From an uncultured Nitrososphaerales archaeon (GTDB lineage Archaea; Thermoproteota; Nitrososphaeria; Nitrososphaerales; Nitrososphaeraceae): a stretch of 32,000 nucleotides of DNA. The notes beneath the pieces were generated by a model. That model was not told the DNA's origin. It saw only the letters and a program-made list of their open reading frames with translations, and did not search any database. Numbering within the stretch: the stretch's first letter is position 1; each line of letters begins with the position of its first letter. Below, one piece after another: positions 12,928 through 19,607 of the stretch. The translations under genes and the position numbers were made by a program. The stretch is from assembly GCA_963695855.1 (NCBI GenBank), contig CAVOHZ010000010.1:1497150-1529149 (forward strand), read 5' to 3'.

Positions 12928-12978
12928 TTCATGTTCAAATAATTTTGAAAACTAAAAATAATACCTCACGAGTTAACT

Positions 12979-13782
12979 AATAACTTTAACACTAACAACA
13001 AATACAAAAAAATAAAAAAAGAGTGGATTGAAGTCTTTTTTTCTATGGAATGGATCTGCTGTACAGTTTTCCTTCCAATGCTAGCTTGTACATCTCTGCT
13101 ACATACGGGTTCTTTCCTGGTGTTTCAGCACCAAGTTCTACTAGACGTGCATATACTCTTACTACATAAGCAAGAGCACCCATGAAAGCCACAACGACTC
13201 CCATGTTAAACATCCAGTGGTTAGGAACAGAAAATATTTCTTCTACGAACCAGAAGTGCCACATTTCGTTGATACCAATGGTAAACATTGTAGCCAAGTA
13301 ACCAATTATGGTTATCTTTAATCCTGTATTCATAGAATTGTTTGGACCTCTCAGGACAGGAACTCTTCTGTCGTACATTGCGACAAATCCCCATCCTAAT
13401 GGTAATGCAATAAAGTGACTGTATAACCACCAATGAGCTGGTGTGAATGCACTATCCCTAATAGCTGTCTGATGTAAAGAACCATCAACGAAGTTATCAA
13501 CTTCTACTGATGCAGCGATAGAACCTAACATAATGACCATTATGTAGATCTTTTTCAGTCTTTGAATTTCTACTTCTTTTGGTATTAGAGCGGGCATCTG
13601 AGCCATATCGATTTGATCACTCTTTACTTCTTGAAAGTATAATTTAAACATGTATCGGAAAAAACAACGAGTAAAAATGTAAAATATAGACAAAAATAAA
13701 ATAAAATTGTAAAATTTTTAATTTTATAGAATATAAAGTATAGATTTTAATACGGAGCTCTGCTTATCACTAATGCTTATCA
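12979..13782. repeat. Left arm of the ~804-bp apparently perfect inverted repeat carrying amoC
   Basis: This arm is the reverse complement of 16915-17719. Both junctions and ~150 nt of the coding 3' end were checked base by base. The in-frame (216 aa) and out-of-frame (70 aa) ORF translations are identical in both arms. Confidence 0.9.
13043..13606 (-). CDS. amoC: Ammonia monooxygenase subunit C, copy 1
   Basis: MAQMPALIPKEVEIQRLKKIY...VDNFVDGSLHQTAIRDSAFTPAHWWLYSHF...VPVLRGPNNSMNTGLK... is recognisably archaeal AmoC. The start is set at the ATG giving ~187 aa rather than the upstream TTG used in the ORF track. Confidence 0.9.
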   Translation of the reverse strand: MAQMPALIPKEVEIQRLKKIYIMVIMLGSIAASVEVDNFVDGSLHQTAIRDSAFTPAHWWLYSHFIALPLGWGFVAMYDRRVPVLRGPNNSMNTGLKITIIGYLATMFTIGINEMWHFWFVEEIFSVPNHWMFNMGVVVAFMGALAYVVRVYARLVELGAETPGKNPYVAEMYKLALEGKLYSRSIP

Positions 13783-13903
13783 TTACTGATGATCAACATG
13801 CAAATTTCCTTCATTCAATAATATTGCTTATTGATTTAAAGCTCCTGTATTTATTACCTTATGTTATAAAATTTTAGATTGGAATTACTTTTATATTCAA
13901 ATA

Positions 13904-15502
13904 TTAATAACCCAGATTCTTAAGAATGCCTTCTCGGTCAATATTTCTAACATGAATTTTTCCTGATTTAGAAACATAATCTGGTATTCCTATTCCAGCA
14001 GCTAAAATAGGAGTTCTATTTATTGAATGTGGCAGAAAAAAGTTTGTCACTTCATCATCATAAAAAGTAGAACCAGATGCACCTAATCCTTGTGCATAAG
14101 CAGCAAGATATATCTTTCCTAATCGTATTCCACCTTCCAATTGTACGGCTCTATATCCTCTATTACCTAACTTTTTCAATATTTTATTTATATCAGCCAA
14201 AATGAAACAAACAGTACTTGCATCAAAGAGAAGTTTTTGATCTAAACATAGATGTTCAGAAGCTGTTCTAAAATCACCAGTTTCAAGTTCATTAAGGGTA
14301 TTATTAATTTTATCATAGAAATAACTACCCGATTTAATGCCTTCGACAGCATTAACAATTAGATAAATATCTATCAAACTATCATCATGTTGAATAAAAT
14401 CAAATGGAATATTTTTATTTGCAAGGTATAGGATTTTTTCTAGTTGTGATTGTGTTATTGGTTTCTGAGAAAATTTTCTAGTTGAACCTCTTTGCAAAAT
14501 CACCTTATATAATGGAGGTCCTGTTTCAAGATTTTCTCTTACAAGACTAATTTTATCAGGTTTCTTAGAATATCTTACTGTTTTTAAAATTTCAACCCAT
14601 TTTTTTACATCATTTTCATATTCTAAATAAGAACCTTCGTGTACCTTCCATATTTGTGGAAAGTTAAGTTCTCCATATCTAGAAATTGGAATGGTATCAA
14701 ATTTTACATCTAGATTTTCTATATATTTGTTAGAGATTTCTTTTTCCTCTATTGTACCTACACCCAATGGAGATAACACAATTGCTGCCTCTTTTCGAGC
14801 TGGTAGCGAAATTATTTTGTTGACTAGATCATCTTGAAAACCCACGATGATCTCAGTTAATAAAGAATTTGCGTTACACAGAGATAGATAATTGGATATT
14901 ATTGTTCCAACATCCCAGAACCAATGTCGATATGATCTGTCTTGGTATTTCCATGAATTTCTCCAAGAAATAGAAGTAAAAATAAGAGTTACAGGAGACG
15001 TAATTATTTTTTCATTGTTTCCACAAGCATGATACAGAGTGGATCTATAATCACCGCTATGTAATTTGGTTAATGTAAAATCTCCAGGACAAAAATGATA
15101 TATTCCATCTTCTAGGTCACGTATATGCGTACATGCTAAATAAATTTCAATTGGATATAAAGCCCCTGTAGCTGATGCAGATCTCATGTAATAAATTGAA
15201 TTATTAGTCTTCATTATCCGCGTAATTCCTGCTGAAAGGAATAAAATTTGCGAAATTCTCATTAAATCTAGTTCATTAGAGGACATATTAGAAAAATTTT
15301 GTTCGTTTTGTAAACATGTAATAACGTCATTATCCGCAAGAGGAAAATTGGATGGTAAATATAATAAATCTAAATTATTAAAAAATTTAAAGGGTGAAGG
15401 TTTATTCTCCCAGTCCAAAAAATGAATGTTTGAATATACAGTAGATGGAGAATGTTTCGTAATCTGATGATATTCTTTTGCAATACCGATTTTATTATTC
15501 AA
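13904..15502 (-). CDS. SagB-type dehydrogenase domain fused to a nitroreductase-family domain
   Basis: 532-aa ORF. The N-terminal half has YHQITKHS...W.NKPSPFK and RSASATGALYPIEIYL (SagB-type signature). The C-terminal half starts with LQRGSTRKFSQKPITQSQLEKILYLAN (the nitroreductase RRSxRxF-type motif). TTG start. Confidence 0.75.
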   Translation of the reverse strand: MNNKIGIAKEYHQITKHSPSTVYSNIHFLDWENKPSPFKFFNNLDLLYLPSNFPLADNDVITCLQNEQNFSNMSSNELDLMRISQILFLSAGITRIMKTNNSIYYMRSASATGALYPIEIYLACTHIRDLEDGIYHFCPGDFTLTKLHSGDYRSTLYHACGNNEKIITSPVTLIFTSISWRNSWKYQDRSYRHWFWDVGTIISNYLSLCNANSLLTEIIVGFQDDLVNKIISLPARKEAAIVLSPLGVGTIEEKEISNKYIENLDVKFDTIPISRYGELNFPQIWKVHEGSYLEYENDVKKWVEILKTVRYSKKPDKISLVRENLETGPPLYKVILQRGSTRKFSQKPITQSQLEKILYLANKNIPFDFIQHDDSLIDIYLIVNAVEGIKSGSYFYDKINNTLNELETGDFRTASEHLCLDQKLLFDASTVCFILADINKILKKLGNRGYRAVQLEGGIRLGKIYLAAYAQGLGASGSTFYDDEVTNFFLPHSINRTPILAAGIGIPDYVSKSGKIHVRNIDREGILKNLGY

Positions 15503-15553
15503 AGGTATATATAATTAAAATTAAAATTTAAAATAATTTTTTAAAAAATTATT

Positions 15554-16570
15554 TTATTTGAATAACCCACCAATGCCACCAAATATTTGATCTAAAATGT
15601 TCTTTCCTTTTTCTTGAGCTCCTTCAGTAACATTCTTTGCTCCTTCACTAATTACTTGACCTGCTTGTTCAGCTCCTTCAGTAACATTCTTTGCTCCTTC
15701 ACTAATTACTTGACCTGCTTGTTCAGCTCCTTCAGTAACATTCTTTGCTCCTTCACTAATTACTTGACCTGCTTGTTCAGCTCCTTCAGTAACATTCTTT
15801 GCTCCTTCACTAATTACTTGACCTGCTTGTTCAGCTCCTTCAGTAACATTCTTTGCTCCTTCACTAATTACTTGACCTGCTTGTTCAGCTCCTTCAGTAA
15901 CATTCTTTGCTCCTTCACTAATTACTTGACCTGCTTGTTCAGCTCCTTCAGTAACATTCTTTGCTCCTTCACTAATTACTTGACCTGCTTGTTCAGCTCC
16001 TTGTTCAGCTCCTTCAGTAACATTCTTTGCTCCTTCACTAATTACTTGACCTGCTTGTTCAGCTCCTTGTTCAGCTCCTTCAGTAACATTCTTTGCTCCT
16101 TCACTAATTACTTGACCTGCTTGTTCAGCTCCTTCAGTAACATTCTTTGCTCCTTCACTAATTACTTGACCTGCTTGTTCAGCTCCTTCAGTAACATTCT
16201 TTGCTCCTTCACTAATTACTTGACCTGCTTGTTCAGCTCCTTCAGTAACATTCTTTGCTCCTTCACTAATTACTTGACCTGCTTGTTCAGCTCCTTCAGT
16301 AACATTCCCCGTTCCTTCAGTAATTATGCTTTCTGCCTGTTGAGCTGCTCCTGTCGCAGCAGATTGAGCTCCCTTAGTAATTACGCTTTCTGCCTGTTGA
16401 GCTGATGACGTTGCATTTTCTACTAAACTTTCAGCTTCATTCTTTATCCCTAAATTTTTTTCCAGTATTTCATTAGTAGTGTTTTGCGCAAAAGCTATAT
16501 GAGAAATTGGTGCTACCAATACCGCAAGAGTTACGATCAAAAGTGTTGAAAATATAGTTTTATCTTTCAT
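15554..16570 (-). CDS. Secreted hydrophilic Ala/Glu/Gly/Gln-rich repeat protein (LEA/hydrophilin-like composition)
   Basis: 338-aa ORF. N-terminal signal/anchor MKDKTIFSTLLIVTLAVLVAPISHIAFAQ. Two degenerate 18-aa repeats are followed by 12 identical GAEQAGQVISEGAKNVTE units, two of which carry an extra GAEQ. Confidence 0.8.
   Translation of the reverse strand: MKDKTIFSTLLIVTLAVLVAPISHIAFAQNTTNEILEKNLGIKNEAESLVENATSSAQQAESVITKGAQSAATGAAQQAESIITEGTGNVTEGAEQAGQVISEGAKNVTEGAEQAGQVISEGAKNVTEGAEQAGQVISEGAKNVTEGAEQAGQVISEGAKNVTEGAEQGAEQAGQVISEGAKNVTEGAEQGAEQAGQVISEGAKNVTEGAEQAGQVISEGAKNVTEGAEQAGQVISEGAKNVTEGAEQAGQVISEGAKNVTEGAEQAGQVISEGAKNVTEGAEQAGQVISEGAKNVTEGAEQAGQVISEGAKNVTEGAQEKGKNILDQIFGGIGGLFK
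15617..16306. repeat. 12 perfect 54-bp tandem repeats plus a partial unit, with two 12-bp nested duplications
   Basis: The unit AGCTCCTTCAGTAACATTCTTTGCTCCTTCACTAATTACTTGACCTGCTTGTTC repeats from 15617. An extra GTTCAGCTCCTT (phase approximate) occurs at about 15995-16006 and 16061-16072. All lengths are divisible by 3. Confidence 0.95.
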
Positions 16571-16914
16571 AAAAAAAATACAATAAATAATATTATTTAT
16601 CTCTTTCCAGAGATAAAATACAAGTTTGTTATATGAAATTAAAAAAACGATCGGTTATAATCAATGCATTTAGTGAGCTGTATTTTTGTCTTGTTTCATA
16701 TGGTTACTTATAAAACGGAAATAGTTTCGATATAAATTTTATCGAAAATAGCTGTAAAATTTACTAAATTATCTGACTATAAAAACTAGCATTACTAGTA
16801 CTTTTATAACGAATTATAAAAATGAGCTTATTATATTGGAAAATTAAAATTTATAATTAATAAATACGCTACTTATTCTATAAATAATATGTTGGTATGG
16901 CTGCTAATCGTCCG

Positions 16915-17719
16915 TGATAAGCATTAGTGATAAGCAGAGCTCCGTATTAAAATCTATACTTTATATTCTATAAAATTAAAAATTTTACAATTTTATTTTA
17001 TTTTTGTCTATATTTTACATTTTTACTCGTTGTTTTTTCCGATACATGTTTAAATTATACTTTCAAGAAGTAAAGAGTGATCAAATCGATATGGCTCAGA
17101 TGCCCGCTCTAATACCAAAAGAAGTAGAAATTCAAAGACTGAAAAAGATCTACATAATGGTCATTATGTTAGGTTCTATCGCTGCATCAGTAGAAGTTGA
17201 TAACTTCGTTGATGGTTCTTTACATCAGACAGCTATTAGGGATAGTGCATTCACACCAGCTCATTGGTGGTTATACAGTCACTTTATTGCATTACCATTA
17301 GGATGGGGATTTGTCGCAATGTACGACAGAAGAGTTCCTGTCCTGAGAGGTCCAAACAATTCTATGAATACAGGATTAAAGATAACCATAATTGGTTACT
17401 TGGCTACAATGTTTACCATTGGTATCAACGAAATGTGGCACTTCTGGTTCGTAGAAGAAATATTTTCTGTTCCTAACCACTGGATGTTTAACATGGGAGT
17501 CGTTGTGGCTTTCATGGGTGCTCTTGCTTATGTAGTAAGAGTATATGCACGTCTAGTAGAACTTGGTGCTGAAACACCAGGAAAGAACCCGTATGTAGCA
17601 GAGATGTACAAGCTAGCATTGGAAGGAAAACTGTACAGCAGATCCATTCCATAGAAAAAAAGACTTCAATCCACTCTTTTTTTATTTTTTTGTATTTGTT
17701 GTTAGTGTTAAAGTTATTA
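16915..17719. repeat. Right arm of the ~804-bp inverted repeat carrying amoC
   Basis: See 12979-13782. The inner junction is TGATAAGCATTAGTGATAAGCAGAGC. The outer junction lies just after AAAGTTATTA. Confidence 0.9.
17091..17654 (+). CDS. amoC: Ammonia monooxygenase subunit C, copy 2 (identical to copy 1)
   Basis: The translation is identical to 13043-13606. It is oriented divergently from copy 1 and has the same 176-bp upstream sequence. Confidence 0.9.
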   Translation: MAQMPALIPKEVEIQRLKKIYIMVIMLGSIAASVEVDNFVDGSLHQTAIRDSAFTPAHWWLYSHFIALPLGWGFVAMYDRRVPVLRGPNNSMNTGLKITIIGYLATMFTIGINEMWHFWFVEEIFSVPNHWMFNMGVVVAFMGALAYVVRVYARLVELGAETPGKNPYVAEMYKLALEGKLYSRSIP

Positions 17720-17802
17720 TATTGATAGTCGAAAAAATTATTCAATACAAAGATACCTGAATAAATATTAAATATGTGTAAGCGATCTTTCTAACAGGGT
17801 TA

Positions 17803-18147
17803 TTGGACCAATGTTATATCTGTGGATCAAAATTTGGTAATGTTATATGTGCATACTGTAATCAAAATACATGTTCATCTTGTTTGATCGAATCGGAAAG
17901 AAAATGTAAAAGATGTGCAATCTCTAAAAAACGACCTTCCGGCTTTCTAAGAAGAAACATTCCGTTCATATTGGGTATGGTTGCCGTATGGTTTTTTGTT
18001 TCAGGTTTGTATCCTTTTCCGTATTTTTATGCTGTAGGAAAACCAGTTGATGAGGCAATAATGCAACCGATTCTCATAGCTACGGCCATTTTTATGATTC
18101 CTTTCATATTTATGATGATTGCATGGAGAAAAAGACCACCGTATTAA
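17803..18147 (+). CDS. Zinc-ribbon membrane protein
   Basis: 114-aa ORF. N-terminal Cys clusters (CYICGSKFGNVICAYCNQNTCSSC...CKRC) are followed by two hydrophobic helices. TTG start. Confidence 0.5.
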   Translation: MDQCYICGSKFGNVICAYCNQNTCSSCLIESERKCKRCAISKKRPSGFLRRNIPFILGMVAVWFFVSGLYPFPYFYAVGKPVDEAIMQPILIATAIFMIPFIFMMIAWRKRPPY

Positions 18148-18227
18148 GAGCAGCTTCTAAATATATTGTAATATATTCCACAATTTTTAAAGATTAAATA
18201 AATAAGAAAATCAATTATCTGATAATC

Positions 18228-19607
18228 TTGCAAAAAGTGTTTTTACAATATGATAAAGGTTCAATCATTATATCTGGACTAGCTCAAATTCCATATACAA
18301 TATTTGATCCTAGAACTAATCAATTAAGAGCACAAGGATTTTACTATTCAAATATTATCTCGTTTTTACAGCAAAGTGGTATTGAATATGAAGATCGTGT
18401 TATGGATATAATTCCAACACCATCTCTTACTATATCTGATTCAAATATTAAACTATCTTTAAGAACATATCAAAAAAAAGCCATAGAAAATTGGGTAAAC
18501 GCAGACAAAAAAGGATGTATAATTTTACCTACTGGGTCGGGAAAAACAATTATAGCTATCAAGATAATTGAATTAATAAACTCTTCATCTATTATCATTG
18601 TACCAACAATAGATCTAATGGATCAGTGGATGAATGTTCTTTCAATATATTTCAAAAATCTGAAAATAGGAAATATAGGAGGAGGAAACTCGAATATTAG
18701 TGGTATAACAGTTTCTACATACGATTCTGCATTTCTTAAAGCACATCTAATAGGAAATAAATTTTCTCTACTTATTTTCGACGAATTGCATCATCTAGCT
18801 GCACCAGGATATAGGACTATTGCAGAGCAATTTGCCTCTCGATATAGATTAGGTCTAACTGCTACTTATGAAAGAGAAGATAATCTCCATCTAGAATTTC
18901 CAAAGTTAGTTGGAGGCATAGTGTTTCAATCACATGTTAATGAATTAACTAAAGAGAAACACTTGGCATCTTTTGTTGTAGAACGGAGATTTGTAAAGTT
19001 ATTACCAGAAGAAAAAATAGAATATAATCAAAATTACGAGTTATATCAAACTCTATTAAAAAAAATTGGGATTAAATTACGCGGTCAAATGGGGTTGCAG
19101 AAATTAATAATAATTTCAGGAAAAAACAAAGATGCAAGAGAAGCCTTACTTGCTAGGAATAGAGCTTTAGATATTGCTCTAAACAGTCAGTCCAAGGTGG
19201 AAGAATTAAGAAATATCCTTAATGAAAACCATGGATTAAAAACTATAATATTTACACAACATAATAAATTGGTATATACAATCTCTGACAAATTTCTAAT
19301 TCCATTTATAACTCATAAATCAAGTAAACAGGAAAGGGAAGATACCTTAAATGGCTTTAAAGACAATAGGTATAATGCTGTAGTAACATCCAAAGTATTG
19401 GACGAAGGTGTAGATGTTCCAGAAGCGGAATTGGGTATAATAGTTAGTGGTACTGGTAGTAAAAGGGAGTTTATTCAACGTTTAGGGCGTCTGTTGAGAA
19501 CTAAACCAGATTCAAATAAAAGAGCGAAATTAATAGAAGTAATTTCTTCTGAAACACAGGAAATTAATACAAGTGCTAGGAGGAAGCAAGCTCTTAAAAA
19601 TATTTAA
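18228..19607 (+). CDS. xpb: XPB/Rad25-type SF2 DNA repair helicase
   Basis: 459-aa ORF. Motif I is ILPTGSGKT and motif II is FDELHH. TATYERED contains the XPB RED motif. Motifs V and VI are VLDEGVDVPE and QRLGRLLR. Confidence 0.8.
   Translation: MQKVFLQYDKGSIIISGLAQIPYTIFDPRTNQLRAQGFYYSNIISFLQQSGIEYEDRVMDIIPTPSLTISDSNIKLSLRTYQKKAIENWVNADKKGCIILPTGSGKTIIAIKIIELINSSSIIIVPTIDLMDQWMNVLSIYFKNLKIGNIGGGNSNISGITVSTYDSAFLKAHLIGNKFSLLIFDELHHLAAPGYRTIAEQFASRYRLGLTATYEREDNLHLEFPKLVGGIVFQSHVNELTKEKHLASFVVERRFVKLLPEEKIEYNQNYELYQTLLKKIGIKLRGQMGLQKLIIISGKNKDAREALLARNRALDIALNSQSKVEELRNILNENHGLKTIIFTQHNKLVYTISDKFLIPFITHKSSKQEREDTLNGFKDNRYNAVVTSKVLDEGVDVPEAELGIIVSGTGSKREFIQRLGRLLRTKPDSNKRAKLIEVISSETQEINTSARRKQALKNI

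Follow-up and report, generated by a model that had tools for sequence, protein, structure and literature searches.

Repeats that are identical to one another and variable in copy number are well known from bacterial surface proteins, such as the alpha C/Rib proteins of group B streptococci and the Vlp lipoproteins of Mycoplasma. Here, we describe an archaeal gene of comparable design, located on the minus strand (15554-16570) of a 32,000-nt stretch of DNA from an uncultured Nitrososphaerales archaeon (assembly GCA_963695855.1, contig CAVOHZ010000010.1, positions 1,497,150 to 1,529,149; hereafter, the window) and flanked by two copies of amoC. Like alpha C/Rib, Vlp and the neisserial lipoprotein Ag473, its product combines a predicted export signal and conserved ends with central, in-frame units that are identical at the DNA level and vary between relatives. 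However, there is no homology to the bacterial repeat surface proteins—the archaeal protein has neither a lipobox cysteine nor an LPXTG motif, carries an N-glycosylation sequon in each unit, ends in an LFK tail and has no known link to immune evasion. The Ag473 model (NF047840) was the most frequent sub-threshold NCBIfam match, hit by nine of ten orthologues (best E = 8e-8); the source protein scored 17.9 bits against a cut-off of 100 bits, and its mature form contains no cysteine.

Three further systems invite comparison. In mucin-type proteins (PMC9417175), a secreted backbone gains exonic repeats that add glycosylation sites and vary in copy number, a parallel of functional class only; mucins are rich in Pro, Thr and Ser and O-glycosylated, whereas the archaeal units are rich in Ala, Glu, Gln and Gly, predicted to be helical and equipped with N-x-T sites at which glycosylation is predicted. 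Group 3 late embryogenesis abundant (LEA) proteins (PF02987) and apolipoproteins A1/A4/E (PF01442) share an amphipathic-helix periodicity, of 11- and 22-mers there and of 18 residues in five turns here, together with a hydrophilic composition and, probably, conditional folding; unlike them, the archaeal protein has a signal peptide, sequons and a distribution restricted to one genus, and it scored 20.8 bits against the PF01442 gathering threshold of 90. Finally, the ammonium-enriching surface layer (S-layer) of Nitrosopumilus maritimus (PMC11153153) is likewise made of an acidic extracellular protein of an ammonia oxidiser, and cation enrichment would be possible in either case. However, the repeat protein is ten times smaller and not an S-layer lattice protein, and ammonium capture by it is pure hypothesis; similarity to S-layers turned up in none of the general searches, none of which was aimed at S-layer proteins.

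Our analysis led us to favor, with reasonable though limited confidence, the reading that this gene encodes a secreted, probably N-glycosylated, polyanionic protein of the cell envelope or extracellular matrix with a length-variable repeat block. No new principle is involved: bacteria and eukaryotes offer familiar examples both of surface proteins with variable tandem repeats and of glycosylation sites carried on repeats. The main points of note are the rule of one sequon per unit, the shared LFK tail and the value of the array as a typing locus.

A perfect tandem array builds most of a predicted secreted protein

The elements of the repeat gene are as follows, from its start to its end.

15554-16570, minus strand: repeat gene, an open reading frame (ORF) of 338 amino acids and the sole long ORF with biological support
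16487-16570, minus strand: predicted signal peptide MKDKTIFSTLLIVTLAVLVAPISHIAFA, followed by Q; residues 1-28, with a basic n-region, a hydrophobic core and small residues at -3/-1 (read by eye)
16403-16486, minus strand: N-terminal non-repeat region, residues 29-56, with sequons NTT and NAT; counterpart of the AENEIIENTLETVEK leader
16295-16402, minus strand: two degenerate, older 18-residue units, AQQAESVITKGAQSAATG and AAQQAESIITEGTGNVTE; residues 57-92, preceding the array
15623-16294, minus strand: perfect array, residues 93-316; 12 copies of GAEQAGQVISEGAKNVTE, with one N-V-T sequon and a net charge of -3 per unit
about 16067-16078 and about 16001-16012, minus strand: two 12-bp GAEQ insertions, after units 4 and 5, giving two adjacent 66-bp units
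15605-15622, minus strand: partial 13th unit and linker GAQEKG, residues 317-322
15557-15604, minus strand: C-terminal amphipathic tail KNILDQIFGGIGGLFK, residues 323-338 (16 amino acids); the stop codon occupies 15554-15556

Tandem Repeats Finder (TRF) placed a 54-bp array of 12.7 copies at 15617-16326, and a script run on the window DNA showed that 12 units share a single 54-nt sequence, GGAGCTGAACAAGCAGGTCAAGTAATTAGTGAAGGAGCAAAGAATGTTACTGAA, within a perfect block of 672 nt (12 x 54 + 2 x 12). The initial annotation had described 12 substitution-free units and a partial 13th, which make up most of a protein with a signal peptide, extra GAEQ segments of 12 bp indicative of stepwise amplification, a degenerate 18-residue periodicity toward the N-terminus and indels that all remain in frame; each of these points held. 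The export signal has a Sec-type layout, with MKDK, a hydrophobic core and AFA preceding Q, and the reading frame is preserved throughout the repeat region of an intact minus-strand ORF. The degenerate units are also retained, with few residue differences, in two sister species (genomes G014 and G019). Moreover, the extra segments form two adjacent 66-bp variants in the source genome, a placement that fits the duplication of one variant unit, and the GAEQGAEQ variant is found once in G019.

The 54-bp unit has no other occurrence in the 3.55-Mb source genome. Perfect repeats are common there: a genome-wide TRF run returned 188 arrays with a score of at least 200, among which the 54-bp array ranks 14th. 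A plus-strand ORF (15614-16405, 263 amino acids) was considered as the gene and rejected, because the signal peptide, the conserved promoter and the orthologues all belong to the minus-strand ORF; it is merely the stop-free antisense of the repeat.

An undescribed family restricted to one genus of soil ammonia oxidisers

The comparison of genomes shows that the repeat gene is real and represents an undescribed family, found only in one uncultured genus of soil ammonia-oxidising archaea (AOA). We infer this genus to be TH1177 of the GTDB, which corresponds to the amoA clade NS-epsilon and is among several uncultured AOA genera abundant in agricultural soils (PMC12823411). When relatives were searched in six frames, 20 of the 24 genomes from the same genus gave matches, as did only one of 16 from other genera, where the match was weak and ran through TGA stops. 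With a profile built from ten orthologues, the family was found in 23 of the 24 genus genomes and in none of 176 genomes from 17 other genera of Nitrososphaeraceae. Of 1.84 billion representative proteins searched exhaustively with HMMER, only 104 matched at E <= 1e-3, 28 of them at E <= 1e-10, and no Pfam or NCBIfam model reached its cut-off for the family. The genus-wide presence, a conserved promoter block and the occurrence of a repeat ORF upstream of a SagB-like/nitroreductase gene (SagB-NR) at all informative loci together argue for the reality of the gene.

In a word-index protein search, only four bacterial AsmA/DUF748 proteins were returned, at 32-34% identity across some 40% of the query, and were set aside as compositional matches. 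Our literature search found no paper on the repeat family or on any repeat protein linked to amoC. Being genus-specific, the family could serve as a marker.

The array turns over while the ends of the protein are conserved

In intact, full-length orthologues, the signal peptide, the glutamine at +1, the leader and the C-terminal tail are conserved, while the arrays between them differ completely. Units of 18 residues occur in the source genome and the two sister species, and ten copies of a 12-residue unit, AEQVVGENVTEG, in genome G012; other species have units of 7, 11, 22 or 29 residues, and one subclade has Pro-rich PAQPE units. Across species, the DNA units measure 21, 33, 36, 54, 66 or 87 bp, and many arrays are perfect at the DNA level, e.g., 36 bp x 10.3 in G012, 21 bp x 4.8 and 87 bp x 2.4 (each 100%). 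One element is common to all non-proline unit types—a sequon of the form N-[AV]-T-E-[GDE]. The expectation in the initial annotation that copy number would vary was borne out between relatives, whose near-identical, in-frame units differ in both number and sequence, copy numbers from short-read metagenome-assembled genomes (MAGs) being unreliable.

The flanking DNA of the source genome differs from that of G019 and G014 by 4-9%, while no substitution separates its own 12 units. Between the source genome and G019, the unit shows one amino acid change (S->T), and between the source genome and G014 three (V->A, S->T and K->E), each being fixed in every copy of the respective species. The lack of within-array substitutions, together with these species-fixed changes, is the signature of concerted evolution with recent expansion. 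As judged from the sequences, replication slippage or unequal recombination is the probable source of change in the array, with homogenisation inside each lineage. The comparison further points to selection for retention of the promoter, signal peptide and tail, of the acidity of the protein and of the N-x-T-E-G motif. The locus is a clear example, from an archaeon, of concerted evolution in which a glycosylation motif is retained amid changing surroundings, and, since close relatives differ in the length and the unit sequence of their arrays, it could be used for strain typing.

By analogy with variable surface proteins, turnover of a surface glycoprotein might serve evasion, changing or masking the receptors used by viruses or predators. 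The rapid, lineage-specific turnover of the array between conserved ends, and the amino acid changes fixed across all units between sister species, are of the kind that such a role would produce. However, the variation was seen between species, no virus is known for the genus, and the retention of the sequon and of the acidity fits a physically constrained role better than free antigenic drift, so that we hold evasion to be improbable.

A second alternative concerns the count alone: the array would be real, and the number 12 a product of assembly, whether the consensus was expanded or collapsed or the population was mixed. Only one assembly holds the array, and an independent short-read contig (run ERR12036778) with an identical SagB-NR gene reaches only 93 nt into the repeat gene from its 3' end. 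Yet the source contig, at 1.8 Mb in an 11-contig genome, suggests long reads, which would easily span 0.7 kb, and neither the intact frame nor the irregular succession of units (54, 54, 54, 66, 66, 54...) is what a collapsed de Bruijn cycle gives. We therefore regard an artefactual count as unlikely.

One orthologue departs from the common form. At locus L022 (CAWIYT010000165.1, 4596-5735; the same locus as L011), the protein ends in ...AQETATSCST without the LFK tail, which sits in another frame about 250 nt downstream; a frameshift lies inside the Pro-rich repeats and may be real or an assembly error.

Conserved termini and promoter

Both ends of the protein carry conserved features. The layout of the signal peptide and the Gln at +1 are invariant among orthologues; the n-h-c arrangement ending in AFA before Q, as read by eye, corresponds to the export signal of variable tandem-repeat secreted proteins. 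In orthologue alignments, the leader reads AENEIIENTLETVEK in most species. We also observed the family signal peptide and an AENEIIENTLE(T/S)VEK... leader at the head of the metagenomic secreted proteins P0011, P0012, P0018, P0020 and P0022, which bear a PsbP-like globular domain in place of repeats (PF01789 in P0022, 25.9 bits; cut-off, 23.5). The leader thus resembles a module that can be placed at the N-terminus of different proteins.

An amphipathic tail ending in LFK closes every intact, full-length orthologue. Its general form is G-K-N-[IF]-L-D-Q-I-[WF]-G-x-x-x-x-L-F-K, and residues N324, D327, I329, L336, F337 and K338 are invariant in ten orthologues. The tail of the source protein has a hydrophobic moment of 0.52 at a mean hydrophobicity of 0.31; moments of 0.5-0.7 at low mean hydrophobicity, as calculated for the tail, are typical of surface-seeking amphipathic helices. 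The sequence KNILDQIFGGIGGLFK contains neither a PGF motif nor a membrane-spanning stretch and thus differs from substrates of archaeosortase of the PGF-CTERM type, in which a PGF-type motif precedes a transmembrane helix and a basic tail.

Transcription signals lie close to either end of the gene:

16582-16608, minus strand: promoter block GGAAAGAGATAAATAATAT(T)TATTTATT, 27 nt long and 12-38 nt upstream of the ATG
ATAAATAA: element of the repeat-gene promoter region
15543-15548, minus strand: T6 tract, a few nt after the stop codon and before SagB-NR (read from the sequence), likely an archaeal terminator signal

The core bases of the promoter block are identical in all ten aligned orthologues, the proteins of which are only 33-90% identical, and the DNA farther upstream could not be aligned. 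The block may combine a purine-rich element resembling the transcription factor B recognition element with an A/T-rich, TATA-like element; its position implies a leaderless or very short-leader mRNA. Since the block is invariant, the gene is probably well expressed. In a genome-wide search for a regulon, no second exact copy of the block or of its 18-mer core was found, and the one site with a single mismatch is not obviously a promoter.

An acidic, probably helical and sequon-rich protein

The mature protein has a net charge of -31 and an isoelectric point of 4.2 and lacks Cys, His, Met and Pro. Five further orthologues were calculated at net charges of -18 to -40, making all six strongly acidic. 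As 18 residues correspond to exactly five α-helical turns, Ala, Val, Ile and Gly would form one narrow stripe along a helix: positions A2, A5, V8, I9, A13 and V16 of the unit fall within a 140-degree arc, and the hydrophobic moment of the mature protein peaks at exactly 100 degrees (0.27, against a mean of 0.06 and a maximum of 0.135 in shuffled sequences). Orthologue moments are weaker and lie near 95-100 degrees, with the 12-mer of G012 at 90 degrees.

The helical tendency noted in the initial annotation also emerged from structure prediction. AlphaFold2 (AF2), run on the single sequence, gave an all-α model with helices at 2-181 and 187-336 and a turn between the GAEQ insertions, at a predicted local distance difference test (pLDDT) score of 78; one orthologue was likewise modeled as all-α, with the tail as a separate helix (pLDDT 59). 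The PDB matches that Foldseek returned for the model were generic long helical hairpins only, the best being cytoplasmic domains of chemoreceptors and SMC coiled coils (2ch7, 1qu7, 5nnv), with which the model shares a pair of helices, each about 150 residues long and folded back on the other, and an interface rich in small residues. With template modeling scores of only 0.2-0.45 and identities of 14-19%, this is a resemblance in shape of a single-sequence model and no evidence of relationship. Taken together, the models and the periodicity suggest a helical propensity that is probably conditional, rather than a defined fold.

The protein carries 15 sequons (4.4 per 100 residues), ranking fourth among the 2009 ORFs of at least 150 amino acids in the genome (top 0.2%), and the genome encodes an STT3/AglB oligosaccharyltransferase (113.8 bits). 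Sequons on a protein predicted to be exported thus coincide with the AglB gene, as in archaeal N-glycoproteins.

The composition had led the initial annotation to compare the protein with LEA proteins and hydrophilins, and an extracellular protectant of this kind—disordered when hydrated, folding onto membranes or retaining water in drying soil, with a capacity tuned by repeat number—would agree with several properties: richness in Ala, Glu, Gln, Gly and Lys with a strong amphipathic periodicity, helix predicted at only moderate confidence, a weak, sub-threshold resemblance to apolipoprotein A1/A4/E repeats and life in soil. Hydrophilins are defined by a Gly content above 6% and a mean hydrophilicity index above 1, and LEA proteins are mostly intracellular. 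Glycine, at about 17% of the unit, passes the first limit; the grand average of hydropathicity (GRAVY) of -0.51, which translates into a hydrophilicity index of about 0.5, fails the second. No LEA match was found at E <= 0.01, including PF02987, and a Pfam-A hmmscan listed only Apolipoprotein and Senescence, both below cut-off. In addition, the archaeal protein has a signal peptide and a conserved sequon in every unit, and the periodicity is strong only in the source genome, being weaker or different in orthologues. The LEA analogy thus describes the physics of an amphipathic repeat and fails as family membership; a protectant role of this type seems to us rather unlikely.

Genomic context between two amoC genes

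The neighborhood of the repeat gene comprises the following elements.

13904-15502, minus strand: SagB-like/nitroreductase, 532 amino acids, directly downstream (PF00881, E = 2e-15)
12978-13782, minus strand: left arm of a perfect 805-nt inverted repeat, with amoC copy 1 (ORF 13043-13693)
16915-17719, plus strand: right arm of the inverted repeat, with amoC copy 2 (ORF 17004-17654), divergent from the repeat gene

The genome has no amoC other than these two perfectly identical, inverted copies, and the order amoC<- rep-> SagB/nitroreductase-> amoC-> is kept across the genus. The Pfam AMO model (amoA) had no match in this genome, nor in the control genomes, and is thus uninformative. At each of the 17 loci of the genus that have over 200 nt of upstream sequence, a repeat-family ORF lies directly upstream of SagB-NR, the copy at L022 having no in-frame tail. 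In contrast, SagB-NR occurs at no fewer than 60 loci of other thaumarchaeal genera with neither the repeat gene nor amoC alongside.

With an 18-residue repeat directly upstream of a SagB-like gene, in an order conserved across the genus, the locus calls to mind the multi-core precursor of a ribosomally synthesised and post-translationally modified peptide (RiPP), processed by the neighboring SagB-type dehydrogenase. The loci of other genera, at least 60 in number, where SagB-NR has no such neighbor, speak against this, as do the position of the only YcaO gene (C10:371270-372316, about 1.1 Mb away), the absence of cysteine from the units and the mature protein, the Sec signal peptide of the repeat protein (SagB-NR has no comparable hydrophobic N-terminal stretch) and the T6 tract and A/T-rich stretch that separate the two genes. 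With neither a co-located YcaO gene nor cysteines, a precursor of the thiazole/oxazole-modified microcin type was rejected, and we rate RiPP precursors in general as extremely unlikely.

The place beside amoC would be explained if the protein were a polyanion associated with ammonia monooxygenase (AMO). The gene always adjoins amoC in the genus, the only two amoC copies of the source genome flank it, the six orthologues calculated are all strongly acidic, and negatively charged AOA S-layers have been reported to trap ammonium (PMC11153153; PMC8692354). However, the repeat promoter lies outside the inverted repeat while the identical sequence upstream of both amoC copies lies inside it, so nothing points to shared regulation; the adjacency is specific to the genus whereas AMO is universal in AOA; and it is a by-product of a cassette bounded by amoC on both sides. 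The proposal, which draws on sequence and gene position, therefore appears very improbable.

A further suggestion of the initial annotation, that the location inside the amoC inverted repeat marks a recombination-prone hotspot, was not supported as an explanation of array instability. A second repeat family of the same genome (see below) varies alike at another locus, where no amoC appears in a 4.5-kb ORF listing, and the inverted repeat was rejected as the cause. Along with this, the occurrence of SagB-NR elsewhere without this neighborhood and the position of the repeat promoter outside the inverted repeat argue against any functional or causal link between amoC and the array.

Several loci show departures from the common arrangement. 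At L023 (DATFCH010000246.1, 253-5896, compared with window positions 13043-19607), the cassette of rep and SagB/nitroreductase has the opposite orientation with respect to the amoC-znf-XPB flank, giving the order SagB-NR -> amoC -> znf -> XPB with an extra 143-residue ORF between SagB-NR and amoC; the amoC inverted repeat therefore does recombine. In the L022 genome, UPF0047 is found on both sides, and the inverted repeat may be longer. In G012, the XPB-side amoC is split over frames (locus L013, G012:C15, 8412-9049; a 96-residue ORF and fragments) and the SagB-NR ORF stops early (464 amino acids), indicating either pseudogenisation or indel errors of long reads.

Proposed role of the repeat protein

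A signal peptide combined with one sequon per unit suggests an extracellular glycoprotein. In the envelope or matrix role that we favor, the protein would be exported by the Sec pathway and its sequons glycosylated by AglB; it would then reside in the envelope or the extracellular matrix as an elongated, conditionally helical, polyanionic spacer bearing glycans. The C-terminal amphipathic helix could hold it at the membrane or on a partner, and the length of the array would set its reach and glycan load.

Several observations weigh against this reading. Expression, export, glycosylation and location are all deduced from sequence, and the tail is short, its anchoring role being suggested by amphipathicity and conservation. 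The AF2 models are single-sequence predictions of modest or low confidence, and a protein so rich in Gly (17%), next to Ala, Glu and Gln, may lack order in solution. The sequon density is inflated by the amplification of a single site. As to the array, the copy number of 12 comes from one assembly; the array of G014 measures 199 bp, approximately k (141) plus one unit, which is the length expected of a collapsed repeat, and eight of 20 genus loci break inside the array. Copy numbers from MAGs are therefore lower bounds.

Further secreted repeat proteins in the same genome

Beyond the window, the source genome encodes a second, unrelated repeat protein of 176 amino acids with a signal peptide (C3:344469-344999; locus L095:1970-2500, plus strand). 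It consists of ten AVSGNQS heptads with one N-Q-S sequon each and the tail NPIAKIGKAIGDLFK, has the highest sequon density of the genome (7.95 per 100 residues) and matches the grass antifreeze β-roll model PF21300 with 42.4 bits, above the cut-off of 30. Orthologues are present in 11 of the 24 genus genomes, with other units and copy numbers and a per-unit sequon N-Q-[ST]. A third tail of the LFK type closes a 305-residue ORF (C10, about 1085634-1086551, plus strand) that starts in a signal-peptide-like manner (..AIPIIDKEVTAQ, followed by EIIDNEVL), contains GGxGxDxxx nonapeptide repeats like those of repeats-in-toxin (RTX) proteins and ends in ..FQKFVSKFIGMYFSGLFK / ...KFIGMYFSGLFK.

A mode of protein retention at the thaumarchaeal surface that has gone unrecognised could lie behind the shared LFK tail. 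On a bolder reading, to which we give very little credence, the secreted sequon-repeat set of TH1177—at least two unrelated families and the RTX-like protein—would share the tail hydrophobic-G-x-x-hydrophobic-G-x-L-F-K-COOH as a new anchoring or sorting signal and form a mucin-like, polyanionic brush of N-glycans, its thickness determined by repeat number, that holds water and NH4+ near ammonia monooxygenase. If true, such a brush would explain the place of the gene beside the only amoC genes.

Finally, this genome is generally rich in tandem-repeat ORFs, some of which start in the manner of a signal peptide. Further low-complexity examples lie at C3 near 246574 (minus strand), C10 316994-317761 and C10 1094931-1095812; one of them combines a signal-peptide-like start with (NTT)n, one contains TEPTTTGPTEV and one GSGSEFTA repeats.

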